Position numbers and translations under genes: made by a program. Below the pieces are notes generated by a model. It ran no database searches. It was not told the DNA's origin and was given only the letters and a program-made list of their open reading frames with translations. Shown here one piece after another: positions 13,091-44,373 of a stretch of DNA of 64,000 nt. The DNA is from Torpedo marmorata (lineage: Eukaryota), in the NCBI GenBank assembly GCA_977017645.1, contig OZ360242.1, forward strand, positions 38,688,001 to 38,752,000. Reading direction: 5' to 3'. Position 1 is the stretch's first letter. Each line of letters begins with the position of its first letter.

Positions 13091-16000
13091 AAGGTGCCAG
13101 TGGGTTATTATGAAAAATATGGGGTGTTGATGAGAAAGTGGAGACCATGTGATGTTCCTGCTCGTGAAGAATGGGCAGTAGTGCAGCAGGTTGTGATCCC
13201 TAAAGTATATAGGGACGAAATAATAACTTTGGCTTATAGCACACCCTTAGGTGGTCACCTTGGGGTGAAGAAAACTATAAGGAAGATAATGAAACAATTT
13301 TATTGGCCAAGTTTAAGAAGGGAGGTTGTAAGCTTTTGCCGGGCCTGTCACACTTGTCAGGTGGTGGGTAATCAGGGTCCCCCGGTGGCACCCTTGCAAC
13401 CTATCCCTGCTTTCAGTGAGCTTTTCTCGAGAGTGATTGTGGACTGTGTTGGCTCATTGCCCAAAACCAAAGCGGGGAATGAGTATTTGTTAACAATTAA
13501 CAGCCACCAGATCTCCAGAGGTCATTCCTCTGAGAAACCTTAAAGCAAAGGCAATTGTAAAGGCTATGGTAAAGATTTTCACCTTGGTAGGTTTGCCAAG
13601 GGAAATTCAATCAGATCAGGGTAGTAATTTCATGTCAAGTCAAGTCACCTTTATTTGTCGTTCATTACCATATACACAGTAAGACGAGATAGCGTTTATC
13701 CAGGACCATGGGCAGATGCACATAAATATCATAATACAATAAAAAACTATAACATGCTATAATACACATATATATCTAGGAATTGAGGAGCCTGATGGCT
13801 TGGGGGAAAAAACTGTTGCACAGTCTGGACGTACGAGCCCGAATGCTTCAGAACCTCCTTCCAGATGGCAAAAGGGAAAACAGTTTACCAAAGGGGTGTG
13901 AGAAGTCCTTCACAATGTTATAAGCCTTCCTCATGCATCGTGTGTTGTAGATGTCCGTCATGGTGGGGAGAGAGACTCCAATAATTTTCTCCGCTGACCC
14001 CACTATCCTCTGCAGGGTCTTTCGGTCCGAGATGGTACAGTTTCCAAACCAAGTGGTGTTGCAATTGCTCAGAATACTCTCAATACATCCCCTGTAGAAT
14101 GTAGTAAGGATAGGGGGTGGGAGATGAATTTTCCTCAGCCTTCGCAGGAAGTAAAGACGCTGCTGGGCTTTCTTGACTACGGAACTGGTGTTGAGGGACC
14201 ACCTGAGACTCTCCCCCAAGTGCACTCCAAGAAGCTTGGTACTCTTTACGACCTCAACGGTAGAGTCGTCCATGGTCAATGGAGAATGACCCCCCGGGCC
14301 CTTCTGAAGTCGACAACCAACTCGTTCGTTTTGTTTACATTCAGATGCAGGTTGTTGGCTCCGCACCATTCCATTAGTGACTGCACCTCATGTCTGGCGT
14401 ATTCCAACAAGTGGTTGATAGATTGGGAGTTAAACAGATTGTATCCTCTGCGTACCATCCAGAAAGTCAAGGGGCCTTGGAGAGGTTCCATTCGGCTTTG
14501 AAAAACATGATTAGAACCTATTGTTGTGAGAAGGAAAAGGATTGGAATGAGGGGGTTCGTTTGTTGTTATTTTCAGCGAGGGAGTCTGTCCAAGAATCAC
14601 TTGGTTTTAGTCCATTCGAGTTAGTTTTCGGACATGAGGTGAGAGGTCCTTTAGGTTATTAAAAGAACAGTGGATTAATAGTGCTGTGCATTTACATCTG
14701 TTGGATTATGTTTCCAAATTTAAGGATCGGTTGCATAAAGCTTGTGAGATGGCAAAGGAGACTTTAAAGGCCACTCAACAAAGAATGAAGGTTTGGTATG
14801 ATCGAAAGACCAAGGTGAGAACTTTAAAACCTGGTGAGAATGTATTAGTTCTGTTTCCCACACATTCAAATCCTGTTAGGGCTAGATTTTCAGGACCCTA
14901 TAGAGTTGAGGCAAAATTTAATGAGGTCACCTATGTCATAGAAACACCTAATCGCAGACGAGACACACAGGTCTGTCATGTGAATATGATTAAGCCATAT
15001 TTTGATCAGGTGCCGCACAAAGAGACTGAACATTTACCAGAGGTGCTGGTTATCGACCAGGGTAAGGAGGAGACAGATAAAACCAGTTTCAGAGAGGGTC
15101 ATTGGAAACATAAATTGATAAGCCCGAGGTTAGAATATTCCATGATTTTGCGCAATCTGGAGACAAAGTTGGCTCATCTCAAAACTTCCGAAAAGGAAGA
15201 GATGAGTCACTTATTTTTAAAATTTATAAATTTATTTCCCGATGTGCCTCATAAAATTTCCATCGCTTATCATGATGTGGATGTAGGAGATGCAAGACCG
15301 ATAAAACAGCATTCCGATCAAATATATGCGGAAAAGTGCAAACTGGTAGATCAGGAAATTGACTACATGGTAAAGAACAGTATCATTCGAAAGTCTACTT
15401 CCAATTGGAGTTCCCCTTGTGTTTTAGTGCCTAAGCCTGATGGAACGGTTAGGTTTTGCACTGATTATAGGAAAGTAAATGCTGTGACAAAGACAGATGC
15501 TTATCCTATTCCTAGAATAGACGATTGTATAGACAAGGTTGGAAAGGCCAAATTTCTTACTAAAATTGACATTCAACGGGTACTGGTGTGTTCCTTTGAC
15601 AAAAAGGGCGAGGGTAATTTCTGCATTTGTAACACCTTTTGGGCTGTATGAGTATAATGTGATGCCTTTTGGTATGAAGAATACTCCAGGAACATTTCAG
15701 AGAATGATCAATTCAGTAATTCAAGGGTTGAAAAACACAGGAGCTTACATTGATGATTTAATTGTAAGTAATGACACCTGGGAAGAGCATGTCTTTGACT
15801 TAAAACAATTGTTCAAATGATTGTCAAAAGCAAATCTCACAGTTAATTTAAGTAAAAGTGAGTTTGGACATGTGACTGTTATTTATCTGGGTTATGTAGT
15901 AGGACAGGGGCAGTTAGCGCCAGTGGAGGCCAAGGTTGTGACTATTTCCGAGTTCCCTGTTCCAAATGGTAAGAAAACTCTGAGGAGGTTCCTGGGAATA

Positions 16001-16520
16001 ATTGGCTACTACCGCAAGTTATGTAAAAACTTTGCAGATCTTTTGCTCCCTCTCACAAATTTGCTTAGAAAGGGAGAAAAATTTGTATGGTCGACAGGTT
16101 GTCAGGAAGCATTTGCCAAAAAAAAAGCCATTTTATGCCACCAACCTGTGCTTAAGTCATTTGAATTAGAAAAGCCATTTTCTTTAGCCGTGGATGCCAG
16201 CGATGAAGCTGTGGGCACGGTGCTGTTACAGAAGAAGAACAAAGAAGACATTGACCATCCGGTATCCTACTTCTCGAAGAAGTTCAATGATCATCAAAGG
16301 AATTATTCAACCATAGAAAAAGAGTTGTTAGCTCTTGTGTTGGCTCTACAACACTTTGATGTGTATGTCTGTGCAGCTCAAAAACCACTCATAGTGTATA
16401 CTGACCATAATCCATTGGTTTTTCTTTGTAAAATTGGAGTCTAATTTTGCAAGAATATGATTTAATGATAACACATATAAAAGGGAAAGATAATGTAATC
16501 GCTGATTGTCTTTCTAAAAT
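13091..16520 (+). pseudogene. pol: Degenerate Gypsy pol: integrase, then RT, then RNase H
   Basis: Integrase zinc-binding part GGHLG...CHTC; core motifs IVDCVG, SDQG and YHPESQGALERFH; RT motifs WSSPCVLVPKPDG, CTDYRKVN and AYIDD; RNase H motifs LAVDASD, YSTIEKE and YTDHNPL. Contains stops and frameshifts. Confidence 0.93.
13637..14387 (-). mobile_element. Rex1/Babar-type LINE fragment (second family) inserted in the integrase
   Basis: ORF 13848-14369 has KLLGVHL...KKAQQRLYFLRRL. (GACTT)n tail. TCATGTC is duplicated at 13630-13636 and 14388-14394. Confidence 0.9.
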
Positions 16521-16658
16521 GCTACACTTTATAAATGAAAATAGTTCATATTTTTGTGTTTGTGGATGAACATTGTGGGTTTTGTTTATATTGTGACACC
16601 TCAATTAATTTCCAAAATTTTGTTCTTGCAGACCAAAATTTTCTTTGTGGTTGGGAGG

Positions 16659-17354
16659 TGTTATGGACTATAACTAACCATTTGGACTGCGGACGGTCAG
16701 CAGGAAGGATCAATTCTTTTGAGTACACACTGGGATCAGGTACTGAAAGATTTAACTTGCCCAGGGCTGGCTGTGCTCAGAGAGAGACACACATCGGGAG
16801 AGAGACAGGCTGTGGAAAAGATACTTTGCTGCACTTTTGCAAAAGCTGGTGCAAACCTCTGCAAAACACATTCAGTTTGGAGTTGCAAAAGGCTATAGTA
16901 ACACCACCAAAAACAGGCTTGTGCATTCCAGTAAGGAAGACTGGGGGAAATAGCACATGGCCTCTTGTATCAGCAAAATCCTGATATAAAGCAACTTTGA
17001 TGGAGAACAGGCGTGAGATCTGTGAGACAGGCTGTGAGATCCAAGTACATGCCTCCTTCAGTGGTATACTGATTTTGAACAGCAACCCTCGTGCACCTAC
17101 CAAAAGGGAAAGTCATCGGAAGGAAAGCAGACCAAGCATTCATAAGCTTAATCAGTCATTGTCTCTCTCTCCAACGTTCATTAAGAAGTCCTTTGTGCCA
17201 GCGCACAGAGCTGAATTTGGACCCTGAACATAGAGAGTGATTTTTGTGGACTGTATTTTTGGGACTGACTTATTTTTATGACTGACCTGGGGTTTTGGGG
17301 AAGGTTTTCTATTTTTTTTCTTGAGGATTGGGTGCAGACTGTAATGGCCTGGGC

Positions 17355-17393
<39 letters not shown>

Positions 17394-17529
17394 GAATAGT
17401 GATTATAGACGTTTATAGTGGGGTTAATTGTTAAGAAATTACATATTTCATTGTCTTTAATAAATATAAATTTCAATTTTACTCCTTTTGCATTGCGTCT
17501 TCCGTCGTTGCTGGTTTGAATTTGTAACA
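16659..17529 (+). repeat. 3' LTR of provirus 1
   Basis: Direct repeat of 10476-11331, preceded by a G-rich PPT-like GGGAGG. Its (CA)n tract is expanded. Confidence 0.95.
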
Positions 17530-24218: not shown

Positions 24219-25151
24219 TGTTATGGACCATGACTGACAGTTTGGACTGCGGACGGTAAGCAGGAAGGATGAAGTCTTTTGGAGTATACACTGGGACCTG
24301 GTACTGAAAGAGTTAACTTGCCCAGGACTTCCTATATTTACCAGAGAGAGACATCAGAGGGAGACAAACTGTGAAAAGGATACTTGGTGAAAAACTTTGG
24401 AAGAAGTAGGCTGGAGAGAAAACTCTCTCTCTATTGTGAGGCCTAAATTGAAAACTAAATCAGTGCCAGTTTTGGAGTTGCAAAGGCGGGAGAACTCAGT
24501 AGGATCCAGGCCTGTGCATCCCAGAGAAGAAGTGGGGAGAATAGCACAGAGTCTCTTGAATCAGAAAAGTCCAGGCTTGTGCATCCCAGGGAAACGGCTG
24601 GGAGAAAAACAAGTCCTGATGATTCGGCAGAATCCTGAGTTGTGAGAACAGCTTTTGTGAGGAACCGGCTGTGAAATCCAAGTATACGCCTTAATCCAAA
24701 ACGGATCTGAATTCGCAATCCTTATGAAAACATAAGAAGGGAACGTCATCAGAGAAGAAAAGCAAGCCAAGTATTCGTAAGCATAAACAGTCATTGTCTC
24801 TCTCCAACGTTCATTAAGAAGTCCTTCTTGCCAACACACAGAGCTGAATTTGGAACCTGAACATAGAGAGTGAATTTTTGTGGACTGTATTATTTTTTTG
24901 ACTGACTTGTTTTTATGACTGACCTGGGGTTTTTGGGGAACGTTTTTCCATTTTTACATGAGGGTTGGGCACAGACTGTAATGGTCTGTGCTTTACACAC
25001 ACACCTTTTAGATAAGAATAGTGTTTATAGACATTTATAGTGGGGTTAATTGTTGTGAAATTATATGTTTAATTGTCTTTAATAAATATAAATTTCAATT
25101 TTACCCCTTTTGCATTGCGTCTTCTGTCGTTGCTGGTTTGAATTTGTAACA
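24219..25151 (+). repeat. 5' LTR of provirus 2
   Basis: Direct repeat of 35267-36203 with TGTTA...TAACA ends. Confidence 0.95.
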
Positions 25152-25286
25152 AAATTGGGGGTGCGTCCTTGGGATTTGAATTAAAAATCCATCTTGGTAA
25201 TTGAAGGAATCCCAGTTTGGTTTAAGACATTCCTTTTGTAAAGCTAATTAAAAGCTAGTGGGTGTGTAACGAAAAACCAGCAACAA

Positions 25287-26309
25287 TGGATGTAGAACAT
25301 TTTTTGGAATCACCTGAACCTGATACTTTAAAAAAGGCGAAAAAGGAACAGTTAGTGGCTATAGCAACAGAGTTGGGCATTTGCTTCTGTAAAACCATTT
25401 ATGAAAAAGGCAGAGATTGGGAGAAAAAATGTCAAATACTATATAAAAGAAAAAAAATTTGAGGAGAGCTTGTTAGAAGGGTAAACCTTCTGAAAACATA
25501 CAGTTGGAACTAAAGAAATTAAAATTGAAATTGGAACAAAAGAAATTAGACACAGAATTGGAACAAAAGGAATTAGACACGGAATTGTAACTAAAGAGAT
25601 ACGAGAACGATGAGAGAAATAGGAGATATGAGCTGGAAAAGATGAGGTTGGAAAATGAGAGGAGACAAGAAGAGCCCCAAGATCAAATTCGTCATCCTGT
25701 TGAGGGGTTTTTGGCTAGTAGAGAAGTTAGGTTGGTTCCTCCATTTGAGGAGGCAGAAATAGATATGTACTTACAGCATTTTGAGAAGGTGGCTGTGAAA
25801 TTAAAATGGCCACAAGACCAATGGTCTCTTATGTTACAAAGTGTAATGAAAGGAAAAGCTCAGCAAGCTTATTCTACTCTTACCACGGAGCAAGCTGCTG
25901 ATTATGAAATGGTGAAAAAGGCTATACTCCAGGCTTATGTGTTAGTTCCAGAGGCTTATAGACAGAAGTTTAGAAATTTAAAAAGATCAGCAACCCAATC
26001 TTACACAGAGTTTGCCGATGAAAAGGTTGTGTTGTTTTGACCGGTGGTGCACATCTAAGGCGGTAAACAATGATTACAATCAATTGAGAGAATTGATAAT
26101 AATTGAGGAGATAAAAAGGTGTGTTCCTGAGGATATTAAGGCATACTTAGATGAAAAGGAGGTGAAAACTTGGCAAAATTCAGCTAAGTTAGCAGATGAA
26201 TATGCTTTAACCCACAAGCCTAAGTGGACGTCAGGCAGAATTTTCCAAAAGGTCACTGTGGATAATCCCAAGCAAGTGGAAAGTAATTTGGAAGTGGTGT
26301 TAAGGAAAG
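25287..26309 (+). pseudogene. gag: Gypsy gag with a SCAN-like capsid domain (frameshifted; continues at 32357)
   Basis: LVPPFEE..ID.Y..HFEKVA..LKWP, VPEAYRQKFR, FDRWC, LRELIIIEE...P...AYLDE...AKLADEY. The zinc knuckle CHYCRKAGY..ANC lies after the BEL insertion. Confidence 0.88.
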
Positions 26310-26976
26310 TGTAAGAGCCGTAGGCTCATTAACTTACCTTTGCTGCGCCGCTCCGATGCCTCGTCGGGTTGTGGAGCGCTCGCGCTGTCTGTAGGCCGTC
26401 CTCGGCCTGTTCTTTGCTTTGCGCATGCGCTGGAGTGCCGACGGGCGCATGCACAGTCTGGAGTGACGTCATTGTGCGCGGTGTATAGTGGGAGATGCAG
26501 TGTGCGCGGTGGAGCGTGCGCAGGGGTATAGGAGCGATGGAGCATGCAAGAATGGCAGAGAATAGGAAAAAGAATAAGATGTAGGAGGGTGAGTGAGATC
26601 TCCATATCTTTATTGACTGTTTTATAACTTTTTATATCGTTTCATCGAGCGTTTCAGACATCGTTTAATACAGCGTTTTACAGATAGTTTCTAAACGTCT
26701 TAAACATCATTTCATTGAACATTGAACTGATTACTTTGTGGTTTGGAATTGTTTGAGCAACTAAGTACAGTTTAAGGAATCATTTAAAAGAAACTCATCA
26801 TACATCGTTTTCAAGAACTGTTTATATTAAAGTCATTGAAGATTACTGCAAGTCACGAGTGTAAATAAAGTTTTTGAACATATTGGACTTTGTTGGTAAA
26901 TTAATTAAAACGCGTCAAAGACAAGTATCTCACTTAGCCTCCAGGTGACTATTGTTGGATCGAAGTCACCATAATA
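26310..26976 (+). repeat. BEL 5' LTR
   Basis: Direct repeat of 31685-32351. CpG-rich first half, AATAAA at about 26864. Confidence 0.95.
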
Positions 26977-27427
26977 TAGTCAATAAAGCGGCTGTTTGGA
27001 ACAGAAAATTGAAGGAAAAAGATAGAATAATCTCTCTGTGCTTTGGACTGATATTTAAAATAAAATGGTGGCCATCTTGGAGATGCCTCGAGTTGGTGGC
27101 AGTTTGTAATCCACATCCATCTGCCATGAATAACAGCCAGAGAGGGATTTAAAGCTTCAAATCTTATAGTAAAGTGTCCTATAAATACGTTGGAGAAACC
27201 ATTTTTGGAAAATCAGTGATATTAGTGACGGATGTTGTGGTTGAAACTCGTTTGTGGATTGCAGCACATTACAGTCATTTGAAGTGGTTGGCATAAGTCT
27301 GTGGACTCCTTCTGTGTATCTTTAGCAAGTAAGAACACAGATTGGAATTGCTGCCGCTGGTCCATTGGGGACTGTTGTTTGGCTAGTGTTGTGTATGCTT
27401 GAAGGACAGAGGAACAAGACGAGTAAA

Positions 27428-30190
27428 ATGGCCGCAGCAGCCACTGATACAGCAGCTACTGATGTATCAGCAGCTGACGCAGCAACCGCTGATGTTGCTG
27501 TTGAGGACCAACGTATTGAAGACATGAAGGTTGCGGATATTAAAGAAGAATTGAAGCGACTGAAAAAGGACATAAGTGGAAATAAAAAGGTTCTTATCAA
27601 AAGATTGAAGCTGGCAAAGGATGAAGAGGCAGCTTCATTAGATCAACAAGAGGATAACTTAGAAATGGCTGAAATTGTGTCACCAAATGATGAAGAAATT
27701 GAAGAGGTTGAAAATGCAAAGGATATACAATTCGAATTGGATAAAGAGGTAAGTATGAAGACAACATATGAACTGCAGGACGAAATACAAGCAAGTGACA
27801 GTGTCTCAAATGCTGAAAGCAGGAGAAGCAAAAGAAGTTCTGGTTCGAGCTCCAGAGTTTCTCGTACTTCAAGTTCTGCATCGTCACGTACAAAGATTGA
27901 TGTTAAATTGGCCGCTCTTCTTGCACAACAAAAAATGCTTTAGGATAAATATATTTTAGAACAAGAGGAGGAGCAGCTAAGACAAAAGGAGGAGCAGCTA
28001 AAGGAGCAGCTAAGACAAAAGGAGGAGCAGCTAAGACAAGAGGAGGAGCAGCTAAGACAAAATGAGAAGCAGCTAATGGAGCAGCTAAGACAAGAGAAGG
28101 AGCAACTAAGGCAGAGAAAAGAACAGCAGGAGCTAGAAGCAAACATTGCTATTGCCAAGGCAGAAAAGAAAGCAATAAAAGGCTCAATGGTAACTGGTGC
28201 TGGACTTAAATTATTTAAATTGTCTGATAATAAAAGGTCATAATTTAAAAAAGGAGTCACAGGAAAAGAAACCAACCAAAAGGATAGATATTTTAGAACC
28301 AAGGAATACAAAACTTGCATATACGAGGACAAACCTTTCAAGAGCATATTGGTATCGAGTCACATGTACCAATGGTAACATCTGAAAACAAAGCTGCGGC
28401 TTGGGTTCGGTCGAACGAAGCAGCTTCTTTGTTATTTGAGTCAAGCATCAGAAATATGGAAGAAACTACACCAGTGAGGTTTCCAGATACATTGCATGCA
28501 ACAAGAGACGGTGAACAGAGCAATGTATTGTCATCCAAGGAAAGACAAAATGAAATTGCTGCATCATTGTTTCAGTTACAGTCTCTCTCTTCTTTACCCA
28601 AGAAATAAATACAACTTTTTGATGGTGATCCACTTCAATATCAATCATTTATGAGATCTTTCAAACACAATATTGAAGATAAATGCCAAGATCGTGATGA
28701 ATGTCTTTATTATTTGGAATTGTTCACAAAGGGACATCCAAAAGAACTGGTAAAGAGTTGTAAACAAATGTCTTCAAAAAGAGGATTAGACAAAGCTAAG
28801 GATTTATTGGAACAATATTTTGGCAACAAGCATCGAATTGCTTTAGCTTATATGGATAAAGCTCTTAAATGGACATCAATAAAACAAAATGATGTAAAGG
28901 CTCTGCAAGAATATACTCTGTTTTTAAGAGGATGTTGTAATGCTATGGAAGAAATCGATAATATTCGTGAGCTTGAAGTTCATAGTAATATGCGAATTAT
29001 CTTAGAAAAATTACCTTACAAGTTATGGGATAGATGGAGAAATTTGGCTTGTGATTTACAAGTAAATTACGGTCGAAAAATTACCTTAAAGGATTTGGTA
29101 AATTTTCTTGAACGACAGGTGTACGTTGAAACGGATCCACTATATGGAAATACCAGAGATAATTCAATGGGCAAAGATGTAAGGAAGTATAACACACAGT
29201 CTAGTCCGAAATTGAAAAGGAGTACTTTTGCTACTAATGTGCAAGTTATAAGTAAAGAAAAGGACAAAGTAAATAAGGAAAAGGAAAGTTTGCCTGATGA
29301 AAAGAGTTGTTTGTTCTGTAAAGGTGGACATGCTTTGTAAATGTGTTTACGATTGGAAAAGAAGGAACATAAGGAAAAGATCGCTTTCTTAAAGGAAAAT
29401 GGAATATGTTTTAGCTGTCTGTGCAAAGGGCACATCAATAAAAACTGCGAGAAGCGAATTAATTGTAACATATGCAATTTGAAACATCCTAGAATTTTGC
29501 ATATCCATAACAGAAACAAGGAATTGGAAAGGGAGCAAACAGAAACAAAGGAAACAACAGAAAATAATGTTATAACCTCGGTTCAGACAAGTGGTCTTAC
29601 CGGGGCCGGTGTGAATAACTGCAAACTTTCGATAGTGCCTGTACAAGTCAAGACCAAGAAATGGGATGGAATAGTAAAAACATATGCATTTCTTGACCCA
29701 GGCAGCACTGCATCTTTTTGCACGGAAGGACTAATGAATAAACTTAATATTCAAGGAAGAAAATCAAGAATTATGTTAAAAACCATGGGACAAGAAAAGG
29801 TTGTTGAAACTAACATTGTTTCAGGCTTAGAGGTTGCTGGATTGGATGACAAAAAATTTTGTGATCTTCCAAGTTTATATACTCAGAAGACTATGCCGGT
29901 GAATGAAGGAAATATTCCTCATCAAAAGGATATCCATCATTTAGCTTATCTGTGGAAGGTTTATTTACCTGAAATTAATTCTGAGATAGAAATGCTGATT
30001 GGTTCAGATGTGCCAAAGGTTTTGGAACCAAAAGAAGTAATACAGAGTAAAAGGAATGGACCTTACGCTATTAGAACCAAGTTTGGTTGGACAATAAATG
30101 GACCACTGGAAAGAAATAATGATATTGGTCAGGAACAGTTAGCAATAAATATTAATAGAATTTCGGTTGTGAAAGTTGAAGAGTTAAGCG
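27428..30190 (+). pseudogene. gag: BEL gag-protease (N-terminal SAP domain, coiled coil, capsid region, three zinc knuckles, aspartic protease)
   Basis: ORF pieces 27365-27943, 28315-28608, 28651-29340 and 29341 onward, separated by single stops and one frameshift. Motifs CLFCKGGH, CFSCLCKGH, CNICNLKHPRILH, YAFLDPGSTASF and GPYAIRTKFGWTINGP. Confidence 0.88.
27961..28135 (+). repeat. In-frame 21-bp tandem repeat encoding (EEQLRQ[K/E])n
   Basis: Tandem GAGGAGCAGCTAAGACAA(A/G)AG units, one coiled-coil heptad each. Confidence 0.9.
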
Positions 30191-30615
30191 AAGAGCAAAA
30201 AACTGTGAATAAGAAAATCACTTTTGAAGAAAAGAAAACAGACCAATGTGAAAATAAATCAATGGTATTTAAAACAACATTGAAGGAATTAATTTCGTCA
30301 GAAATGGATGAAAGTGAAGTATTAGAAGATGTTGCAAATAATACTATTGATTGTTCATGTGTAATTGAATCAGATACAGGAATAAAACAAGTGACTGAAA
30401 ACAAATCTGATTGTAGATTTTGTAGTTCAGAGATTACAACAGACAAAGCTAATGAAGAAAGATTGCAATGTGATGTAAAACTGGAGAACACAGAAAATTG
30501 TGCTGATGGAATAAAGAATAATGTGAATGATAATTTAATGCAATTGAATTCAGAGAACAAAATGTTGAAAGGGGAATTGGAAATATTAGATAATCAAGAA
30601 AACAGTAAACAGAAA

Positions 30616-30915
30616 GATTTAATTGTAAGTAAAACTCGCAAAGTCAGAAAGCGGAAGAAAAGAATAACTGCTGAAGAAATGAATACAGTTATTGAGGAAA
30701 GAGATTCAGCATTATCAAAATGTAAAAGGTTGGAGGAAGAGATTAATGTTTTGAAAGAGAACAAGTTATTGGTTAATAACACAAAACAGTTGACTTTAAA
30801 AACCAATCAAGAATGTAAATTGAATGTTCAACAATTAACAATGCAGAAAGAATGTGATATTTCATTGCAGAAATGTAACAAGCAAGATGAAGAAATTAAA
30901 AAATTTCAAGTTTGC
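30616..30915 (+). other. MIPOL1: MIPOL1-like coiled-coil segment captured in frame in the BEL ORF
   Basis: RITAEEMNTVIEERDSALSKCKRLEEE (from 30661) compared with human MIPOL1 RITAEEMSALIEERDAALSKCKRLEQE, recalled from memory and not searched. Similarity continues through NN..QLT...NQE..L and EEI....V. Confidence 0.8.
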
Positions 30916-31284
30916 CGCAACAGGATTGACAATAGAAATATCAATGTATCACATGATATTTTGACTTCAGATCAAATTATTAATTTCTCAGAAAGAACTG
31001 AGACTGAATTGAAAGTTACAAAATTGGATTTGGAATTGCAGGAAAGAGCAATAGTGTGGTTAAACAGACCTGTTTAAAATCGAAAGGATCAAATAAATAT
31101 TCAAATTCTAGTTCTAAGAGTTTAAATTCTTCACATGAGAAGTGGAATAATGAAGAAAGGAATAAAGTGAAACGACATGCTGAAGAAGTGCCTTGTGTTA
31201 AATTCAAAAGAAAAACTGTATCTATTTTGTCTGAGGAAGATTTGAGGTTTACTGGTTGACGTTTTAAGTCAGATTATGGAGATA

Positions 31285-31478
31285 AAAGAGCTTTAAAGAG
31301 ACATTGTGATTATTATGGATAATTCAACTTCAAGAAACTCCTGGTTACTTGGAAAAATTATTGAGACTTTTCAAGACAAAAGGGGACTTGTGCGTCAAGT
31401 GTGAATTAAAACTAAGACTGGTTTTCTAAACAGACCTATTAATAAGGTCTGTCTTTTGTCGGAGACAGAGGAACTTTG
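31285..31478 (+). pseudogene. Residual C-terminal tail of BEL integrase (DUF5641-like)
   Basis: DIVIIMDNSTSRNSWLLGKIIETFQDKRGLVRQV*IKTKTGFLNRPINKVCLL, the usual end of BEL pol. Confidence 0.85.
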
Positions 31479-31684
31479 ATAAATATAAACTGACTTTATT
31501 TGTTGTTGTATATTTCACAGGTTACAGACTTTTGTTGATTCAGATTTATGGTAAACTCTGGGTTTATGAAGAAGGAAGAAAGAAGATTTGTATATTGTTT
31601 GAATGTTATGGTTATTGTTATTTATAATTTATAGTGTAATTATTATTTAAGACATTGCGTCTAATTATAATAATTAGGGGCCGG

Positions 31685-32351
31685 TGTAAGAGCCGTAGGC
31701 TCATTAACTTACCTTTGCTGCGGCGCTCCGATGCCTCGTCGGGTTGTGGAGCGCTCGCGCTGTCTGTAGGCCGTCTTCGGCCTGTTCTGTGCTTTGCGCA
31801 TGTGCTGGAGTGCCGACGGGCGCATGCGCAGTCTGGAGTGACGTCATTGTGCGCGGTGTATAGTGGGAGATGTAGTGTGCGCGGTGGAGCGTGCGCAGCG
31901 GTATAGGAGCGACGGAGCATGCGAGAACGGCAGAGAATAGGCAAAAGAATAAGATGTAGGAGGGTGAGTGAGATCTCCATATCTTTATTGACCATTTTAT
32001 AACGTTTTATATCGTTTCATCGAGCGTTTCAGACATCGTTAAATACAGCGTTTTACAGATAGTTTCTAAATGTCTTATACATCATTTCATTGAACATTGA
32101 ACTGATTACTTTGTGGTTTGGAATTGTTTGAACAACTAAGTACAGTTTAAGGAATCATTTAAAAGAAACTCATCATACATCGTTTTCAAGAACTGTTTAT
32201 ATTAAAGTCATTGAAGATTACTGCAAGTCACGTGTGTAAATAAAGTTTTTGAACATATTGGACTTTGTTGGTAAATTAATTAAAACGCGTCAAAGACAAG
32301 TATCTCACTTAGCCTCCAGATGACTATTGTTGGATCGAAGTCACCATAATA
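31685..32351 (+). repeat. BEL 3' LTR
   Basis: Direct repeat of 26310-26976, about 20 substitutions by eye. Confidence 0.95.
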
Positions 32352-32356
32352 GAAAG

Positions 32357-35138
32357 GGATGAAGGAAAGTGGAAAAGGGAAAACACTTCAGGTCCCATTT
32401 GCCACTACTGTAGGAAGGCTGGTTATATGCTAGCAAATTGTCCAGTGTTGAAAAAGAAGAGAGAAAAGGATGCAACACCTAATGCTTGTATTCAGAGTGA
32501 GAAGAGGCATAACACCCAGGAAGGAGGTAAATTTACTGACAAAGTTAGAGATGTATTTAAACCTTGTGTGACTGATGGTTTTGTTTCAGTTAAGGCAGGA
32601 TCAAAACAAGTTCCAGTGAAAATCTTGCGAGATACTGGAGCTGCTCAGTCACTTGTGTTAGATAGTGTCTTGGAATTTTGTGAAGCTACTGACACCGGTA
32701 ACATAAATTTAATTAAAGGAATTGGGGGTGATGTTGAGTCCATTCCTTTGCACAAAATAGTATTGGACTCAGACTTGGTGGAAGGATCTGTTATGATAGG
32801 AGTGAGATCAGAGTTGCCAGTAGAAGGAGTCTCACTGTTGCTAGGCAATGACTTGGCTGAGGGTAAAGTCGTTCCTGCAGTGCGAATGACCACTAAGCCT
32901 GTCATTGATAAGTCAGAGAAAGACTCTGATATTTATCCGGCATGTGCCATAACCAGGGCCATGTCTAAGAAAAATGTCACTGTAGAGAAGGCAGTGGAAA
33001 ATAACTTGGTGAAAGAAAAAGTCAGTGATAATCAAGAACACCTGGAAAAGGCTTAGCAATTTCCTATGTTACACCCATCCACTGATAAGACACCTAAAGG
33101 CACAGATTTGTCACTATCCCGACAGGAGCTAATAGCAAGGCAAAAGGACGATCCTGATCTTGCTGAGGTGAGGGATAAGGTTCTCTCTGAAGAGGAGATT
33201 AAAAAGGTGCCAGTGGGTTATTATGAAAAAGATGGGGTGTTGATGAGAAAGTGGAGACCATGTGATGTTCCTGCCAATGAAGAATGGGCAGTAGTGCAGC
33301 AGGTTGTGATCCCTAAAGTATATAGGGATGGAATAATAACTTTGGCTCATAGTACACCCTTAGGTGGTCACCTTAAGGTGTAGAAAACTATAAGGAAGAT
33401 AATGAAACAATTTTATTGGCCCAGTTTGATAAGGGAGGTTGTAAGCTTTTGCCGGGCCTGTCACACTTGTCAGGTGGTGGGTAAACCTAATCAGGGTCCC
33501 CCGGTGGCACCCTTGCAACCTATCCCTGCTTTCAAGTGAGCCTTTCTTGAGAGTAATTGTGGACTGTGTTGGCCAATTGCCCAAAACCAAAGCGGGGAAT
33601 GAGTATTTGTTAACAATTATGTGTGCAGCCACCAGATTTCCAGAGGCCATTCCTCTGAGAAACATTAAAGCAAAAGCAATTGTAAAGGCTATGGTAAAAT
33701 TTTTCACTTTGGTAGGTTTGCCAAGGGAAATTCAATCAGATCAGTGCAGTAATTTCATGTCAGGCGTTTTCCAACAAGTGGTTGATGGACTGGGAGATAA
33801 ACAGATTGTATCCTCTGCGTACCATCCAGAAAGTCAAGGGGCCTTGGAGAGGTTCCATTCGACTTTGAAAAACATGATTAGAACCTATTGTTGTGAGAAG
33901 GAAAAAGATTGGGATGAGGGGGTTCATTTGTTGTTATTTGCAGCGAGGGAGTCTGTCCAAGAATCACTTGGTTTTAGTCCATTCGAGTTAGTTATCAGAC
34001 ATGAGGTGAGAGGTCCTTTAAGATTATTAAAAGAACAGTGGATTAATAGTGATGTGCATTTAAATCTGTTAGATTGTGTTTCAAAATTTAAGGATCGGTT
34101 GCCTCGGGCTTGTGAGATGGCAAAGGAGAATTTAAAGGCCACTCAACAGAGAATGAAGGTTTGGTATGATCGAAAGGCTAAGATGAGATCTTTTAAACCT
34201 GGTGAGAACGTATTAGTTCTGTTTCCCATCCATTCAAATCCTCTTAGGGCGAGATTTTCAGGACCCTATAGAGTTAAGTCAAAAATTAATGATGTTACCT
34301 ATGTCATAGAAACACCTAATCGCAGACGAGACACACAGATCTGTCATGTGAATATGATTAAGCCATATTTTGAACAGGTGCCGCACAAAGAGACTGAACA
34401 TTTACCAGAGGTGCTGGTTATTGACAGGGGTAAGGAGGAGACAGATAAAATCAGTTTCAGAGAGGGTCATGGGACTGTTAATTCTCTGGGTTATGTAGTA
34501 GGACAGGGGAAGTTGGCGCCAGTAGAGGCAAAGGTTGTGACTATTTCCGAGTTCCCTGTTCCAACTGGTAAGAAAACTCTGAGGAGGTTCCTGGGAATGA
34601 TTGGCTACTACCACAAGTTCTGTAAAAACTTTGCTGATCTTGCGCTCCCTCTCACAAATTTTCTTAGAAAGAGAGAAAAATTTGTATGGTTGACAGGTTG
34701 TCAGGAAGCATTTGTCAAATTGAAAGCCATGTTATGCCACCAACCCGTGCTTAAGTCACCTAATTTAGAACAGCCGTTTTCTTTAGCCGTGGATGCCAGT
34801 GATGAAGCTGTGGGCACGGTGCTGTTACGAAGAAGAACGAAGAGGACATTGACCATCCGGTTTCCTACTTCTCGAAGAAGTTCAATGATCATCAAAGGAA
34901 TTATTCAACCATAGAAAAAGAGTTGTTGGCTCTACAACACTTTGATTTTTATATCTGTACAGCTCAAAAAACACTCATAGTGTATACTGACCATAATCCA
35001 TTGGTTTTTCTTTATAAAATGAAAAATAAGAATCGACGGTTTTTGAATTGGAGTCTAATTTTGCAAGAATATGATTTGGTAATAACACATATAATAGGGA
35101 AAGATAATGCAATTGCTGATTGTCTTTCTAGATGTTAA
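32357..35138 (+). pseudogene. pol: Provirus 2: end of gag, protease, integrase, RT thumb and RNase H (RT core deleted)
   Basis: ILRDTGAAQSL (protease); AHSTPLGGHL and CHTC; IVDCVG...SDQ...ESQGALERFH; then a direct jump to LGYVVGQG...LAVDASD...YTDHNPL...NAIADCLSR. Confidence 0.92.
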
Positions 35139-35266
35139 ACTTTATAAATGAAAATAGTTCATATTTTGTATTTGTGGATGAACATTGTGGATTTTGTTTA
35201 TATTGTAACACCTCAATTTCCAAAATTTTGTTTTTGCAGACCAAAATTTTCTTTGTGGATCGGAGG

Positions 35267-36203
35267 TGTTATGGACCATGACTGACAGTTTGGACTGCGG
35301 ATGGTAAGCAGGAAGGATGAAGTCTTTTGGAGTATACCCTGGGACCTGGTACTGAAAGAGTTAACTTGCCCAGGACTTCCTGTATTTACCAGAGAGAGAC
35401 ATCAGGGGGAGACAAACTGTGAAAAGGATACTTGGTGAAAAACTTTGGAAGAAGTAGGCTGGAGAGAAAACTCTCTCTCTATTGTGAGGCCTAAAGTGAA
35501 AACTAAATCAGTGCCAGTTTTGGAGTTGCAAAGGCGGGAGAACTCAGTAGGATCCAGGCCTGTGCAACCCAGAGAAGAAGTGGGGAGAATAGCACAGAGT
35601 CTCTTGAATCAGAAAAGTCCAGGCTTGTGCATCCCAGGGAAAAGGCTGGGAGAAAAACAAGGCCTGATGATTCGGCAGAATCCTGAGTTGTGAGAACAGC
35701 TTTTGTGAGGAACCGGCTGTGAAATCCAAGTATACGCCTTAATCCAAAATGGATCTGAATTCGCAATCCTTATGAAAACACAAGAAGGGAACGTCATCAG
35801 AGAAGAAAAGCAAGCCAAGTATTCTTAAGCATAAACAGTCATTGTCTCTCTCCAACGTTCATTAAGAAGTCCTTCTTGCCAGCACACAGAGCTGAATTTG
35901 GAACCTGAACATAGAGTGTGAATTTTTGTGGACTGTATTATTTTTTTTGACTGACTTGTTTTTATGACTGACCTGGGTTTTTGGGGAAAGTTTTTCCATT
36001 TTTACATGAGGGTTGGGCACAGACTGTAATGGTCTGGGCTTTACACACACACACACCTTTTAGATAAGAATAGTGTTTATAGACGTTTATAGTGGGGTTA
36101 ATTGTTGTGAAATTATATGTTTAATTGTCTTTAATAAATATAAATTTCAATTTTACCACTTTTGCATTGCGTCTTCTGTCGTTGCTGGTTTGAATTTGTA
36201 ACA
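35267..36203 (+). repeat. 3' LTR of provirus 2
   Basis: Direct repeat of 24219-25151. Confidence 0.95.
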
Positions 36204-37072
36204 ACATAAATAAAAATTATAATTAAATTACAATTTAAATTAAAAATGGATTTAAAATTAAATTAAAGTTAGTTATTGTTTGTCTCCTGCCATAAATTTG
36301 AATGAGGATGTTCAAGCTACTAATTCAAGTTAGGTCTCAATCATTTGCATTGTTTGAATTTATGACCCTGGTTGAGGACTGTGCGATATCACATGCAATC
36401 TTCATATAAAATTCTATTATAATGTGGTCATTCTCCTAAAGACCCCTTAACATTAATTTTTTTCTTATTACATCATAGTAAATTTAATACAGCCATTTTA
36501 TTTTCTTGAACAAACTAATCCAAAAAATCATCTTGTATACATTCCATGAATTTGTTATCCACAAAATTAATGCTAATTTGGGTTGCCCTGGCTATGAGCA
36601 AATTAAAATAAACCTGATTATCTCAGTACATGTTCTTGAAATTTCCTGCTTTGTATTGTGCACAAAAATTACAGCCACTGTTTTGCGACATCGGCGTCAC
36701 ATTCAAAACAAAGATGTTGGTAAGGCAGTTGAGGTATTGTAGAGTCTGGTGTCTGGAATTTCCATTTTAAGATGAGCTTGCTACACATTTTTGCAGAAAT
36801 GTTTGGAAAGAATAGAAAATGCTGGAAAATGTAAACTGGATTTGGACTAGAGAGAACTTTGATAGAATGGCAGTGGAGATGCAGTTAAGTAGATTGCTAT
36901 TTATCAAGGAGACTTTGATAGATTAGGAAGAGCTCCAGTCATCATATACCATCTGTGCATCATTCTGAATTACTGCCAAGGTTCCTTGCATGCTGGTATT
37001 AGGATTCTCTAAACCCAATTCATCTGTTATCCAAAAATTAGGCATTTTTAGTTTAATCATTTTGCAATGCCG

Positions 37073-38388: not shown

Positions 38389-41095
38389 TGTGACATTCTC
38401 CCATTTTTTCAGATCATTTTATTTGTGTGGGACTGTCCCTTTAAGAGAACAGATTTAACAAACTTTGTAGGTTTTGGAAAGTGACTGTGAACTGGCAGCA
38501 GGCTTCGAAGACAGCATGTTTCTAACTTTGATACATTTGCAGAGTGAAGGGAAGAAGCCCTGGAGAAGCCAAGTGCAGAGACAACGTGACCAGCATATTG
38601 AAAAGACAGTGCATTGTTTGCTCAGGAGGCCATTTTTAAGAAGGCAGCACAAGAGTAAAGTGCTCTTTAACTCCTTTGTGGGAATGAGAAACCCACTTGG
38701 CCTCATTGTGCGGTCATAGAAAAACTGTCAGATTTCCTCCTGTTCATTATTGAGGAATGAGAAGACCACTTCGTGACCAAAGAGAGTGAAGGTCACTTTT
38801 GTTCGACTGACCCACGAAAAGGGTTCTACTTGCAGAAGAAATACTGCACTTTTGTTCGACTGACCCACGAAAAGGGTTCCACTTGCAGAAGAAATACTGC
38901 GCTTGGATGGTGACCAGAGTGAGAGTCACTTGAGTTCGGCTGACCCACAAAAAGGGTTCTGGAAGCTTCGTGAGCATCGCTTGCTTCGTATCCCCTACAC
39001 CAAAGAAGAGGGGAATTTTAGTTGGCACTCGTCTAAAAAGAACACTTAGTTGAAGCACCTCAACAAGGGTTTCGTGAGTTAATCAACGTTCTTTCACCCC
39101 CGGTCTCTTTCACCCACTTCATGAACTGCTAATTTCATCTAAAGCCTACGTGTCGCATCCATCTATGGCCTACGTGTCGCATCAATTTCAAGCCCACGTG
39201 TCATCACTGAATTTACGAAACTGAACTTTGAACTGCCTTTCGAGAATTGGGCCTTGAGCTGTAGTGGCTTGGGGTATTCCACACACACCAATATATAAGT
39301 GAAAATAAATTTAGTTAAATTTAGATAAGTGTAAATAAATTAGATGAGGTGTTATATCATTGTTAATTAATAATTAAAAATATTATTTTAAATATAACAC
39401 CATCTGGGCTAATTTTTATCGCTGCTGTCTGGTACGTAAAAAAATTGGGGGCTTTTCCGGGATCACCCAAAATTGGGAGCTGAGTGATCGATTAATTTTC
39501 AATTTGACTGATTAGAATTTTTTTGAGCCAAATTAAAGGCTTGTATGTGGAACGATAGCAGCGATGGACATTGATAAGTTTTTGGGATCGCCCACCTTTG
39601 CAAATTTGCAGGGGGCAAGAAAGAATGAGTTGTTGACTATCGCACAAAACTTGGAACTTGCAGTGGTAAAACAATCGATGAAAAAGGCAGTGATTCAGAA
39701 AATTATAGGGTGCTATTATGTAAGAGAAGGGAAGTTTGGAGAGGAGGTAAAACAATTTCTCCAGAGTGAATCCCGTGAGCAGCAATCACCAGAGGAACAA
39801 ATTGAATTAGAAAAACTTAGATTGGAGTTTGAGCTGAAAAAACGTAGGTTTGCAGGGGAGGAACCCAAAAGGCAAAGGAGATTTGAGGCTGAGGAAGCCG
39901 AGAGACAAAGGCAGCTAGAATTAGGAAAACTTAGAAGGGAGAAAGCCGAGATGCAAAGACTGAGGGAGGAAGAAATGGAAACTTGGCAAGAATCTGCTGA
40001 TATAGCGGATGAGTATGCTTTAAGCCACAGGAATAAGTTCATGCCAAGTGGAGCCTTCCAGAGAGTTGAATTTGAGCAAAGTGAAACCTTCCAGAGGGAT
40101 AATGTGGAATGTCCACGTAAGTTAGAAAACATATCGGGAAGTAGTGCTAGGGGTACAGATGAAGGAAAGCAAGAAAAGGAAAAACCTTTGGGTCCCCTGT
40201 GCTACTATTATAGGAAGCCTGGTCATGTGATAGCAAATTGTCCCATGTTAAGGAAAAAGAGAGACCATGTGACCAGCTTATTGAAAAGACAGTGCATCGT
40301 TTGCTCAGGAGGCCATTTTAAGAAGGCAGCACAAGAGTAAAGTGCTCTTCGACCTCATTTGTGGGAATGAGAAACCCACTTGGCCTCATAGTGTGGTTAT
40401 AGACAAACTGTCAGATTTCCTCCTGTTAATTATTGAGGAATCAGTAGACCACTTCGTGACCAAAAAGAGTGAAGGTCACTTTTGTTCGACTGACCCACGA
40501 AAAGGGTTCTACTTGCAGAAGAAATACTGCGCTTGGATGGTGACCAGAGTGAAAGTCACTTGGGTTTGGCTGACCCACGAAAAGGTTCTGGAAGCTTCGT
40601 GAGCATCACTTGCTTCATATCCCCTATGCCAAAGAAGAGGGGAATTTTAGTTGGCACTCGTCTAAAAAGAACACTTAGTTGAAGCACCTCAACAAGGGCT
40701 TTGTGAGTTAATCAACATTCTGTCACCCCCGGTCTCTTTCACCCACTTCATGAACTGCTAATTTCATCTAAAGCCTACGTGTCGCATTCATCTAAGGCCT
40801 GTGTGTCGCATCAATTTCAAGCCCACGTGTTATCACTGAATTTACGAAACTGAACTTTGAACTGCCTTTTGAGAATTGGGCATTGAGTTGTAGTGGCTTG
40901 GGGTATTCCACACACACCAATATATTCGCGCATATTTGGGGTTTAAGTTAGATATGTGTAGATAAATTTGGTTAAGTTTAGGTAAGTGTAAATAAATTAG
41001 ATGTGTTATATCATTGTTAATTAATAATTAAAAATATTATTTTAAATATAACACCATCTGGGCTAATTTTTATCGCTGCTGTCTGGTACGTAACA
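38389..41095 (+). mobile_element. Gypsy (Gmr1-like) provirus 3, a different LTR family, heavily deleted
   Basis: TG...CA ends with CCAT TSD (38385-38388 / 41096-41099). 5' LTR at 38389-39441, PBS at 39446-39463, gag remnant from 39564, partial 3' LTR at about 40259-41095. Confidence 0.9.
39564..40260 (+). pseudogene. gag: Internally deleted Gypsy gag
   Basis: MDIDKFLGSPT...ARKNELL.IA..LEL is homologous to the provirus 2 gag N-terminus. It jumps to TWQESADIADEYALSH and CYYYRKPGHVIANC, so the capsid/SCAN part is missing. Confidence 0.85.
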
Positions 41096-41719: not shown

Positions 41720-42900
41720 TGGTGACTCCTTTGTCCATCCACGCTAACCCCACTTGCCTGCACTGAGACCACATCCTTCTATGCCTTGCCTATTTAAGTG
41801 CCTGCTTAAATGTCTCTTAAATGCGTCATTGAATCTGATTCCACCATATCCTTCCCACAACACTTTGCAGATATCAACCACTTTCCATGTGAAAAAAACA
41901 TATCCCTCAGATCCACTTTAAAACTCCTTCCTCTCACCTTGAACTTGTGCCCTTTTAAAAAAAAATATTTTATTTAAAATTTTAAATCACAAAATACATA
42001 AAATAAAATATGAAATTATCAAAATATTTGTGATACATTTTCACCCCCCCCCACCCTCCCCACCCCAACCCTCCCAACCCCACTAATCTAATAAAAATAA
42101 AAAATATAAAATAAAAATAGAGAAAGGAAAAAAAAAAGAAAGAAAAAGATAGAGTAAGGAGAATGCCAATCTAAAAAACATACATCTATAAACTAATTCT
42201 ATTGTGGAGGTCAGGTATGCCAGTAGATCCGATACTCAGAGATCTTCAAATCCTTAAACCAACAACTTTCATATATGGGCTCCAAATTTTTAAGAAAAAA
42301 TGATATTTATTACGTAAATTATAAGTAATTTTTTCAAGTGGTATACACGAACGAAGTTCTGCATGCACCTTTCTAATCCTAAATCTAAATCAGATTTCCA
42401 AGTAATAGCAATACATTTCTTTGAAACAGCTAAAGCAATTCACAAAAATTCTATTTGATACATGTTTAATTTCATCTTAATACTATATTTTCTAATATCT
42501 CCAAACAAAAATATCATAGGATCCATTGGAAATGTAATCTTAAATACTTTATCTAAAATTTTTTTAACTTTCAACCAAAAATCATAAACTTTTGGACAAA
42601 ACCATGTAGAATGTACAAAAGAACCTTCTTCTTTATTACATCTAAAACATAAACCTGATAATGTCAGATTAAATTTCTTTAGTTTTTTAGGTGTTAAATA
42701 TAATTGATGAAAAAATTATATTGTACTAATCTATATCTAACATTAATAATCTTCGTCATACTTAATTTACATAATTCTTTCCAGTGATTCTCATCTATTG
42801 TTACATTAACTAGTGCCCTTTTTGACCCTCTAACCTGTTTGTGCCTCTCATTATCTTATATGTGTTCTATCAGGTCTGTCCAGCTGTGGAAAACCAAAGT
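41720..42900 (-). mobile_element. Decayed CR1 3' fragment interrupted by an L1
   Basis: The reverse complement of 41770-41955 resembles the CR1 ORF2 end and 3'UTR (compare 54380-54560) and resumes after 42808. Confidence 0.6.
41957..42807 (-). mobile_element. L1 3' fragment, same family as 57703-63544
   Basis: Near-identical to 57703-58550. TSD AACT(T/A)GTGCCCTTTT at 41942-41956 and 42808-42822. Confidence 0.92.
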
Positions 42901-43092
42901 TCCTGATAAAAAGAAAATTATAAATAATCAAAATATATTTTGTGAAAGACAGAATACCTTGAAAATATATTTTCACTGACTGGTGGTTATTTTAAATGAG
43001 GTGAATTGGCAGAAATAATAATCAAAACATTTCAATTACTGTTGTGAAAAAAGGAGATGAAAGGATGAAATATGATGAAAACTCAGTTGGAC

Positions 43093-43766: not shown

Positions 43767-43847
43767 GATGTGTGACAATTTTGGTGAGTTAATATGGATG
43801 TTTACCCAATTGCATCAGAAACAAGCATTGCAAGTAAAACATTACAT

Positions 43848-44315: not shown

Positions 44316-44333
44316 TCTTTCCAATATTTTTAT

Positions 44334-44373
<40 letters not shown>

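Follow-up and report, generated by a model that had tools for sequence, protein, structure and literature searches.

A non-autonomous BEL/Pao family of Torpedo marmorata with spliced host RNA from BRCA1, MIPOL1 and Elongin A in place of its pol core

Introduction

How does a retrotransposon come to carry host coding sequence in the place of its polymerase, and what keeps the reading frame open there? The question is raised by an LTR element in a window of the Torpedo marmorata genome, by which we mean the whole stretch of 64,000 nucleotides that was analysed. The initial annotation described a BEL element with matched LTRs and a target-site duplication (TSD), lacking the core of reverse transcriptase (RT), RNase H and integrase, into which the mRNA of a single host gene, MIPOL1, had been transduced. 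The element itself is as described; the cargo comes from three genes.

Results

The element and its insertion site

The element is a non-autonomous BEL/Pao derivative, not a complete member of this group (Table 1). Its two LTRs are 97.0% identical (648/668), the 5 bases on both outer flanks are the same, and a polypurine tract is present. The LTR termini are TG...TA in both LTRs and in the siblings, instead of the TG...CA of BEL/Pao elements. The start of the candidate primer-binding site is identical in 4 of the 5 siblings that have a 5' LTR end. Gag is of the BEL type (DUF1759 above cut-off) and in one frame with the protease; in sibling L008 the frame is open for 862 codons from gag through the cargo. 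In the window copy, gag is broken by stops at 27941, 28606 and 29338 and by one frame change; its 5' half is open over 433-477 codons in four of six siblings. Of the order PR-RT-RNase H-IN, only the protease and the DUF5641 tail are left; in the frame 29341-31077, a Pfam search detects neither RT nor RNase H nor the integrase core. The copy is inserted into the gag of a gypsy element in which rve lies upstream of RT_RNaseH (integrase before RT/RNase H), and which, by this domain order, we take to be Gmr1-like.

The SAP domain of gag is possibly a fourth capture; its best PDB match is MKL1 (E 3e-4; Atlas 0.80).

Table 1. Features of the chimeric BEL element and its surroundings (positions in the window)
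Feature	Position	Strand	Basis
Gypsy element hosting the window copy	24219..36204	+	LTRs 24219-25152 / 35267-36204, 97.6%
TSD, left copy, 5 bp	26305..26309		LTR/flank comparison
5' LTR, 667 bp, termini TG...TA	26310..26976	+	LTR comparison; siblings with same ends
Candidate primer-binding site, directly after 5' LTR	26977..26995	+	position only
BEL gag	27428..29340	+	open-frame listing, Pfam
Gag SAP domain	27515..27610	+	Pfam
Gag DUF1759	28618..29040	+	Pfam
Cys/His zinc knuckles and BEL aspartic protease	29341..30192	+	sequence; Pfam Asp_protease_2 E 0.049, below cut-off
Spliced BRCA1 fragment, in frame, from small upstream exons and the first part of the large central exon	30193..30622	+	protein search, host exon
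MIPOL1 arc 1, three host exons (aa ~245-350), no introns	30623..30920	+	protein search, host exon map
Back-splice junction, MIPOL1 codon 350 donor to codon 90 acceptor	30920..30921	+	host exon ends, copies
MIPOL1 arc 2 from upstream exons: aa 90-113 and aa ~141-161 with an in-frame 81-nt deletion between them	30921..31054	+	host exon map
Elongin A remnant, aa 422-531 with internal deletion	31059..31271	+	protein/profile comparison
BEL integrase C-terminal tail (DUF5641)	31285..31479	+	Pfam match 31300-31401, E 3.7e-5, above cut-off; stop 31402
Polypurine tract	31676..31684	+	sequence
3' LTR	31685..32351	+	LTR comparison
TSD, right copy, 5 bp	32352..32356		LTR/flank comparison

Three captured host genes

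In the place of the pol core lies an in-frame cassette derived from spliced RNAs of the host genes BRCA1, MIPOL1 and Elongin A, each of which has one host locus; the cargo pieces are free of introns. The identification of MIPOL1 proved correct. At E<=0.01 the 299-aa insert matched 100 proteins; each has the Pfam pair of MIPOL1, and those that carry a name are called MIPOL1, the rest being unnamed or hypothetical. Rays and sharks gave the best matches (E 1.2e-25), and BLASTP with masking gave 82 bits versus a maximum of 25.4 for 200 shuffles. The first part of the insert had been taken for MIPOL1 as well, but is BRCA1 (59% aa identity to an electric-ray BRCA1, E 5e-42; 79% nt identity to a single host exon on contig C61 at ~25.488 Mb). 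The presumed echo of the MIPOL1 N-terminus, ENKMLKGELEIL, therefore belongs to BRCA1. Its companion ETELKVTKLDLELQER is true MIPOL1, but from an upstream exon that is placed after downstream ones. The Elongin A remnant is out of frame in the window copy and in frame in most siblings. A PDB sequence search with the insert returned only vimentin coiled-coil noise (E 0.03), and Pfam gave no match to the MIPOL1 part, the profile set used having no MIPOL1 model.

Ancestrally, the parts were arranged as BEL protease with RT linker, Elongin A (aa ~99-223), BRCA1 (aa ~160-410), MIPOL1 (aa ~242-350, then 90-177), Elongin A (aa ~377-624) and BEL integrase tail; subfamilies shed different parts of this cargo by deletion. 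Protein searches found no Gag-PR-cargo fusion in other species, which is weak evidence because these searches were length-limited.

A mobile family of high copy number

The junction of the window's subfamily (A) occurs at 15,051 genomic sites, that of an older, host-like subfamily (B) at 545, and controls at none. Of six sibling pairs, the four that could be assessed each have their own 5-bp TSD. These counts support a high-copy family with different TSDs and a chimera that is mobile in its present form, the latter as had been proposed from the window copy. If all 15,051 sites were full length, the family would occupy up to ~90 Mb or ~1.5% of the assembly, which is an upper estimate. A swap of the backbone is suggested by two observations: loci of subfamily B match the MIPOL1 part in 30/30 cases but neither the initial 250 bp of the A LTR nor positions 31285-31420 (0/30), and dS is 0.63 in the protease region versus 0.23-0.30 in the cargo. 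Among 150 scored genomic matches to Peptidase_A17, 11 lie within BEL frames of more than 2,000 codons, which are candidate helpers.

Selection on the cargo frame

The initial annotation had the frame open to 31077 and suggested that selection kept the fusion. The frame from 29341 is indeed open for 578 codons; its stop, however, is private to the window copy, as it follows a 7-nt deletion near 31054, where MIPOL1 arc 2 of this copy ends, and 27 of 28 siblings lack this deletion. In subfamily A, 22/30 loci read 115-116 codons beyond the junction, the window copy 52. Indels present in at least six B copies are all multiples of 3 (9/9, with one split gap joined and the window's own 7 nt removed), and of 2,000 neutral simulations only 3 were stop-free at 15-20% divergence. 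The frame is less conserved at the Elongin A end, with recurrent 2-nt indels in 3/28 and 6/28 A copies and a frame change in all three translated B copies. Selection on the open frame is supported.

A selected cargo protein is another matter. The amino acids of the cargo drift and are near-neutral at the protein level: between subfamilies, dN/dS is 0.73 and 0.92 in the cargo versus 0.29 in the zinc-knuckle/protease region. Protein-level constraint is hinted at by a deficit within the subfamily A cargo (N/S 2.1 for shared versus 5.1 for one-copy variants, a marginal p=0.048) and by a MIPOL1 dN/dS of 0.22, window versus A. The loci were the top matches by similarity, and all dN/dS values were computed with one common reference and are therefore not independent. 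We lean towards selection at the level of the element that keeps the cargo translatable mainly as filler, not for any activity of BRCA1, MIPOL1 or Elongin.

That the cargo is selected as a functional protein, e.g., a protease-released or Gag-fused coiled-coil and acidic module for assembly, trafficking or evasion of silencing, appears rather doubtful to us. Such a role would suit a frame open through 15-20% divergence, the shortage of shared replacements and the low MIPOL1 ratio; also, the MIPOL1 coiled coil is retained in 60/60 loci (partly picked by that coil), while other parts are trimmed. The between-subfamily ratios speak against it, as do the absence of RING and BRCT from the BRCA1 part and the state of the 27-fold more numerous subfamily A, whose cargo is shorter by 120+81 nt and no longer has the Pfam domain Elongin_A. 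It is unlikely, too, that a circular RNA (see below) and the BRCA1 and Elongin A fragments were made into a polyprotein module useful to the element, that the 15,000 copies give rise to small RNAs directed at the host genes BRCA1, ELOA and MIPOL1, and that subfamily A burst once its cargo had diverged (75-91% identity) past that conflict. If true, a circRNA would have been the building material of a selfish element, and LTR particles would be a general route of circRNAs into genomes.

A MIPOL1 exon scramble at exact splice sites

Whatever the cargo is kept for, its MIPOL1 join connects, to the exact base, a splice donor with an acceptor that lies upstream of it: the exon ending with codon 350 is followed directly by the exon starting with codon 90, whose acceptor sits 206 kb upstream in host MIPOL1. 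Seven exon lengths sum to 780 nt, both junction ends are in phase 2, and the junction would close a circle of 780 nt, of which the elements carry 589 nt. Each exon-end pattern leads to one host site on contig C40 (for two patterns, one host site among element matches). The copies match the host exons end to end without introns, mostly at 91-98% nt identity in subfamily B and 75-91% in A. Both host exon ends are fitted by 26/30 loci of subfamily B with at most 4 mismatches in 60 nt, and 29/30 retain the exact splice-boundary bases. Nothing from exons outside the circle was seen: 139 candidates scored for the downstream exon (aa 350-427) included a single occurrence, that of the host gene, and sequence before aa 89 has no credible match in the elements. 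The missing arc (aa ~190-200) likewise has one occurrence, in the host, and no poly(A) tail is visible on reading the sequence. Copy L032, a candidate for a longer linear MIPOL1 copy, was rejected, for it has the scrambled junction too.

The scrambling of exons at exact splice sites makes a circular RNA, and not an mRNA, the most likely MIPOL1 template. Of the retrovirus-style transduction of a host mRNA suggested initially, the spliced host RNA in a BEL element stands, but not the simple messenger. The junction alone is ambiguous: a linear transcript with repeated exons, arising by trans-splicing or from a since-lost tandem duplication of seven exons, leaves an identical one, and the 589 nt around it need not extend into exons outside the circle. 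RNA reads spanning the junction could also stem from copies of the element, which have it too. With the same capture and spread, we regard a linear source as quite improbable, since every exon is single in the present host locus and back-splicing is the common source of such junctions. MIPOL1 circRNAs, possibly of different exon content, have, moreover, been listed for mouse and human (PMC9888537, PMC8176118, PMC8783515). A jump of RT within or between MIPOL1 mRNAs that met both exon boundaries by chance, aided by their common AG, is highly improbable. The cassette does have at least four other template switches, and the exon ends have 2-3 nt in common, but the junction deviates by no base on either side, mid-exon positions are the rule at the other joins that were mapped, and rough hand arithmetic gives ~1% or less for hitting donor and upstream acceptor at short microhomology.

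Capture and spread

The cargo pieces are all in sense orientation, truncated at both ends, and they replace pol rather than interrupt it. They are intron-less and flanked by discontinuous parts of one LTR-element type, as in LTR-mediated retroposition. On reading the sequence, none of the cargo joins has a poly(A) or a TSD, the signs by which a post-integration retrocopy would have been recognised. Both gene-to-gene joins with mapped host exons (n=2) are mid-exon, as expected of template switches. Similarity at the switch points is slight: 2 nt for BRCA1 to MIPOL1, and ~15 nt matching no assigned source for MIPOL1 to Elongin A. The idea that LINE-made retrocopies first entered a single BEL copy as DNA, and that this copy then spread, is largely refuted by these in-frame, pol-substituting pieces and their bare joins, even though LINEs are active here and one with an open RT frame lies inside the BRCA1 part of copy L084.

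We favour template-switch capture of co-packaged RNAs, a circRNA included, with helper-dependent spread and a cargo that is mainly in-frame filler; as a whole, we consider this explanation probable. BEL particles in the germ line would have co-packaged host RNAs, onto which reverse transcriptase would have switched. One template may have been the 780-nt MIPOL1 circRNA, which the enzyme would have entered and left in the middle of exons, passing over the back-splice site on the way. The chimera would supply its own Gag-protease and borrow RT and integrase from intact BEL elements. By recombination with such helpers, the window's subfamily may have gained its new LTR, the integrase tail and probably gag-protease. 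A long translatable cargo would let ribosomes reach near the 3' end, with possible benefits for RNA stability, escape from nonsense-mediated decay and cis packaging.

Discussion

Acutely transforming retroviruses (v-onc) are replication-defective and helper-dependent and have host coding sequence fused in frame to gag. The Torpedo element resembles them in its defective genome, in host coding sequence in frame with gag and in its presumed helper. Unlike them, it lacks env and infection, nothing points to a gain of function, and its cargo is in near-neutral drift at the protein level.

Maize Bs1 is a non-autonomous LTR element with partial exons of three unlinked genes that re-transposed with common switch points; in the accessible text its copy number is 1-5, and one of its pieces is out of frame (PMC5131818). 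The Torpedo element, too, is a non-autonomous LTR element with pieces of three host genes. In contrast to Bs1, it is a vertebrate BEL/Pao with >15,000 copies, one piece is back-spliced, and all three are in frame in most copies of the large subfamily. In animals, LTR-mediated retroposition leaves host RNA flanked by discontinuous LTR-element parts through template switching, multi-gene chimeras included (Tan et al. 2016, PMC5131818). The examples in the accessible part of that paper comprise one BEL (BEL18_AG, mosquito) and a four-gene mouse locus; the loci are young and low-copy, and the word 'circular' is absent from the main text. The Torpedo chimera differs in that it forms a major repeat family, which is divided into subfamilies and has probably exchanged its backbone.

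The mouse circRFWD2 pseudogenes have a non-colinear exon junction, few 3' adenosines and LTR-rich flanks, with 33 high-confidence copies and 42 in all (Dong et al. 2016, PMC4897178). That paper, as far as accessible, does not settle how circRNAs come to be reverse-transcribed, and it describes no fusion in frame with element genes. The Torpedo element is similar in these features, but its junction lies inside an LTR polyprotein frame, between two captured genes, and is several hundred times more numerous. A junction in this position points to co-packaging and template switching, and back-splice junctions between captured RNAs in the frame of an LTR element can be tested for genome-wide. Judged by the accessible parts of these sources, the precedents, Bs1 and mouse circRFWD2, stand at 1-42 copies. 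Searches of mostly open-access literature found no description of the Torpedo BEL-BRCA1-MIPOL1-Elongin A family. The family offers a natural test of two questions: whether it is the protein or just the open frame of a captured coding sequence that is retained, and whether thousands of BRCA1/Elongin A fragments lead to small-RNA cross-talk with the host genes.

In a vertebrate-wide survey, MIPOL1 heads the five most retrocopied parental genes in cartilaginous fishes (bioRxiv 10.64898/2026.06.26.734816). This preprint ties retrocopy abundance to non-LTR elements, and its main text, in the accessible part, contains no BRCA1, Elongin, 'chimeric' or 'circular'. The Torpedo BEL family is probably behind that ranking.

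Structure of the element

The element is a non-autonomous BEL derivative and not a complete member of its group. Its LTRs measure 667 bp and are 97.0% identical to each other, and the whole insertion lies within a gypsy element's gag. Its own gag comprises DUF1759 and SAP (Pfam), the protease comes next, and the frame stays open beyond it. Up to 31077 Pfam detected no RT, RNase H or integrase core in this frame; the DUF5641 tail is the sole remaining part of the integrase. The SAP domain, which opens the gag after an alanine-rich start, is also matched by two loci of subfamily B, the older and more host-like version of the family; it may be a trait of the family or else a fourth captured piece. 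The window as a whole is made up of LTR elements stacked inside one another, two related gypsy copies included, and gypsy sequence of the same family also lies upstream in another fetched locus, L081.

Features in the window
Feature	Position	Strand	Remark
Stacked LTR elements	10468-17529; 24219-36204; 38577-41093; 41957-58551		
BEL-derived element	26310-32351	+	paired LTRs, 5-bp TSD
SAP domain	27515-27610		Pfam E 2e-8
BRCA1 piece	30193-30622		59% identity to electric-ray BRCA1
MIPOL1 junction	30920/30921		diverged form
Elongin A remnant	31059-31271		
End of open frame	31077		

Host genes in the cargo

A protein search with the 299-aa insert yielded 100 proteins, every one with the Pfam pair of MIPOL1, rays and sharks ranking first. 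The insert scores 82 bits against MIPOL1, its shuffled versions at most 25.4 bits (200 shuffles). With the pol core absent, the initial annotation was thus right in placing a MIPOL1-like insert in a BEL frame instead of RT-RNase H-integrase. The capture is, however, not that of a single host gene, since protein matches add pieces of BRCA1 and Elongin A. In the older copy L031, the 180 codons 5' of MIPOL1 matched six proteins, all of them BRCA1, the top one (80% identity) from an electric ray. The segment 3' of MIPOL1 in copy L041 leads to Elongin A (764 matches among 932 candidates, best 92%), and the Elongin_A Pfam domain is present in the three copies tested.

When sought with protein parts outside the main cassette, the host loci of MIPOL1 (contig C40) and BRCA1 (C61) gave one match each, that of Elongin A (C41) one full-length match of 26. 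The other 25 are partial, and all three that were fetched are element copies with an extra N-terminal Elongin A piece ahead of BRCA1. From these copies, from the BEL linker retained beyond the protease in L084 and L086, and from additional BRCA1 exons in L084, we infer the ancestral order Elongin A (N part), BRCA1, MIPOL1, Elongin A (C part), with trimming that differs among subfamilies. The best protein matches point to a batoid as the host, probably one of the electric rays. At an exon start of the host BRCA1 (L082), three codons are absent that element copies and the BRCA1 of another ray possess; here the element copies have retained the gene's earlier state.

The exon-scrambled MIPOL1 piece

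In most scored loci, a genome search with shark MIPOL1 found amino acids ~222-350 followed, in frame, by 90-186. According to splice isoforms in the protein set, codons 90 and 350 coincide with exon borders. Seven host exons were mapped (136, 106, 130, 34, 171, 108 and 95 nt; sum 780). The GT donor of the exon ending in codon 350 is at C40:64385711; the AG acceptor before the exon starting in codon 90 lies near C40:64591881, 206 kb upstream of that donor. Element copies join these two ends base for base, and the frame is kept because both exon ends are of phase 2. Compared with the host exon ends over 60 nt, 26/30 subfamily-B loci have no more than 4 mismatches and one locus has none, while subfamily A shows the diverged form (18-21 mismatches) in 30/30 loci, the window included. 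B copies hold about 589 of the 780 nt, starting 48 nt inside one exon and ending about 20 nt inside another. Both the arc that these copies lack and the MIPOL1 exon that follows downstream were found a single time, at the host locus.

The template was, therefore, most likely a circular RNA and not the host mRNA that had been proposed: the exons are scrambled exactly at splice sites, with a back-splice junction. Judged by its sequence, the piece would fall under the definition of a circRNA-derived copy given in the consulted part of PMC4897178. A linear transcript with repeated exons could also have supplied the scrambled order and DNA alone is compatible with it, yet we consider this source unlikely. 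Several repeats of MIPOL1 arcs at one locus (G000:C42:9558892-9564983) could be tandem copies or reflect rolling around a circle. A 3' end of the family with its LTR (L065, G000:C40:64491413-64494444) sits in a host MIPOL1 intron within the circularised interval.

Copy number and mobility

With up to 3 mismatches allowed, 15,051 genomic sites carry the junction pattern of the window and 545 that of subfamily B; reversed control patterns gave 0 sites. Loci are repeated on some unplaced contigs (L012 and L013 share a flank). All 40 scored insert matches extend over the full insert length with 97-100% identity. Of six siblings checked at both ends, four could be read for target duplications, and each of these has its own 5-bp TSD, one of them with a trimmed LTR end. 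Sibling LTR pairs are 97.9-99.5% identical, and the 20 of 30 loci in which the LTR end motif was found have 19 distinct right flanks. The chimeric family is mobile, as had been presumed.

Over 29000-31680, all 30 bins are covered by contigs from sequencing runs whose labels name three other organisms (X2, X5, X6). The back-splice junction is spanned by one X2 contig, and the BRCA1-MIPOL1 join, at low depth, by a contig of a further run, X4. The family is thus probably shared with relatives.

Three junction sites spaced by 5,485 bp (G000:C45:74910204-74921206) suggest a tandem array. In L079 one LTR directly follows another; L085:1-300 shows an A copy inside a B copy in opposite orientation; the BRCA1 part of one chimeric copy is interrupted (L084:700-3420) by a LINE that has a long open RT frame and is accompanied by a short duplication. 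Other insertions occur in L087 and L055/L034.

Selection and helpers

Selection on the Gag-PR-cargo frame had been postulated. For the open frame this stands: the nine indels that separate the window from at least 6 of the 28 subfamily-B copies in the alignment all have lengths divisible by three (a split 81-nt gap joined, the window's private 7-nt deletion removed), and when neutral change was simulated in a simple way, only 3 of 2,000 runs were free of stops at 15% or 20% divergence. Constraint on amino acids is weak. With top similarity matches as loci and one reference shared by the comparisons, dN/dS is 0.73 in the BRCA1 piece (28 copies) and 0.92 in that of MIPOL1 (30 copies), versus 0.29 in the knuckles and protease (24 copies); against host exons, valid rows range from 0.46 to 1.15. 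The amino acids of the cargo thus appear to be barely held. Its composition has shifted towards the A-rich one of the element, and some lineages tolerate frameshifts at the Elongin A end. In the opposite direction point a deficit of replacements among shared as compared with one-copy variants in 29 A copies (pooled p=0.048; L013 omitted as duplicate) and a window-versus-A dN/dS of 0.22 in MIPOL1. The cargo is probably kept as in-frame filler; that it is functional is rather doubtful.

Intact BEL helpers are plausible, since 11 of 150 scored Peptidase_A17 matches lie in frames of 2,018-2,134 codons and the sequence that normally continues BEL past the protease was counted 3,318 times, in part within chimeras. 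The cargo is common to A and B, but the LTR start and the 5' portion of the integrase tail are not (0/30 loci), and dS in the protease region (0.63) exceeds that in the cargo (0.23-0.30), which implies that the cassette moved between BEL backbones. Such an exchange would fit co-packaging with helpers.

Related systems

As far as the consulted parts of the sources go, the element resembles LTR-mediated retroposition and maize Bs1, which carries three genes in 1-5 copies (PMC5131818), and its MIPOL1 part the LTR-flanked circRFWD2 copies of the mouse (PMC4897178). The literature searched, repeat databases being outside its scope, contained no description of this family. It is unusual for one family to unite a back-splice junction with pieces of three genes, BRCA1 among them, a frame that stayed open and >15,000 copies. 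A 2026 preprint (bioRxiv 10.64898/2026.06.26.734816), whose main text, as far as consulted, does not describe this element, puts MIPOL1 at the top of the retrocopied genes in cartilaginous fishes. SUDS3, SDF2L1, SLU7 and ZNF276, also among its top genes, may be further LTR-borne captures.
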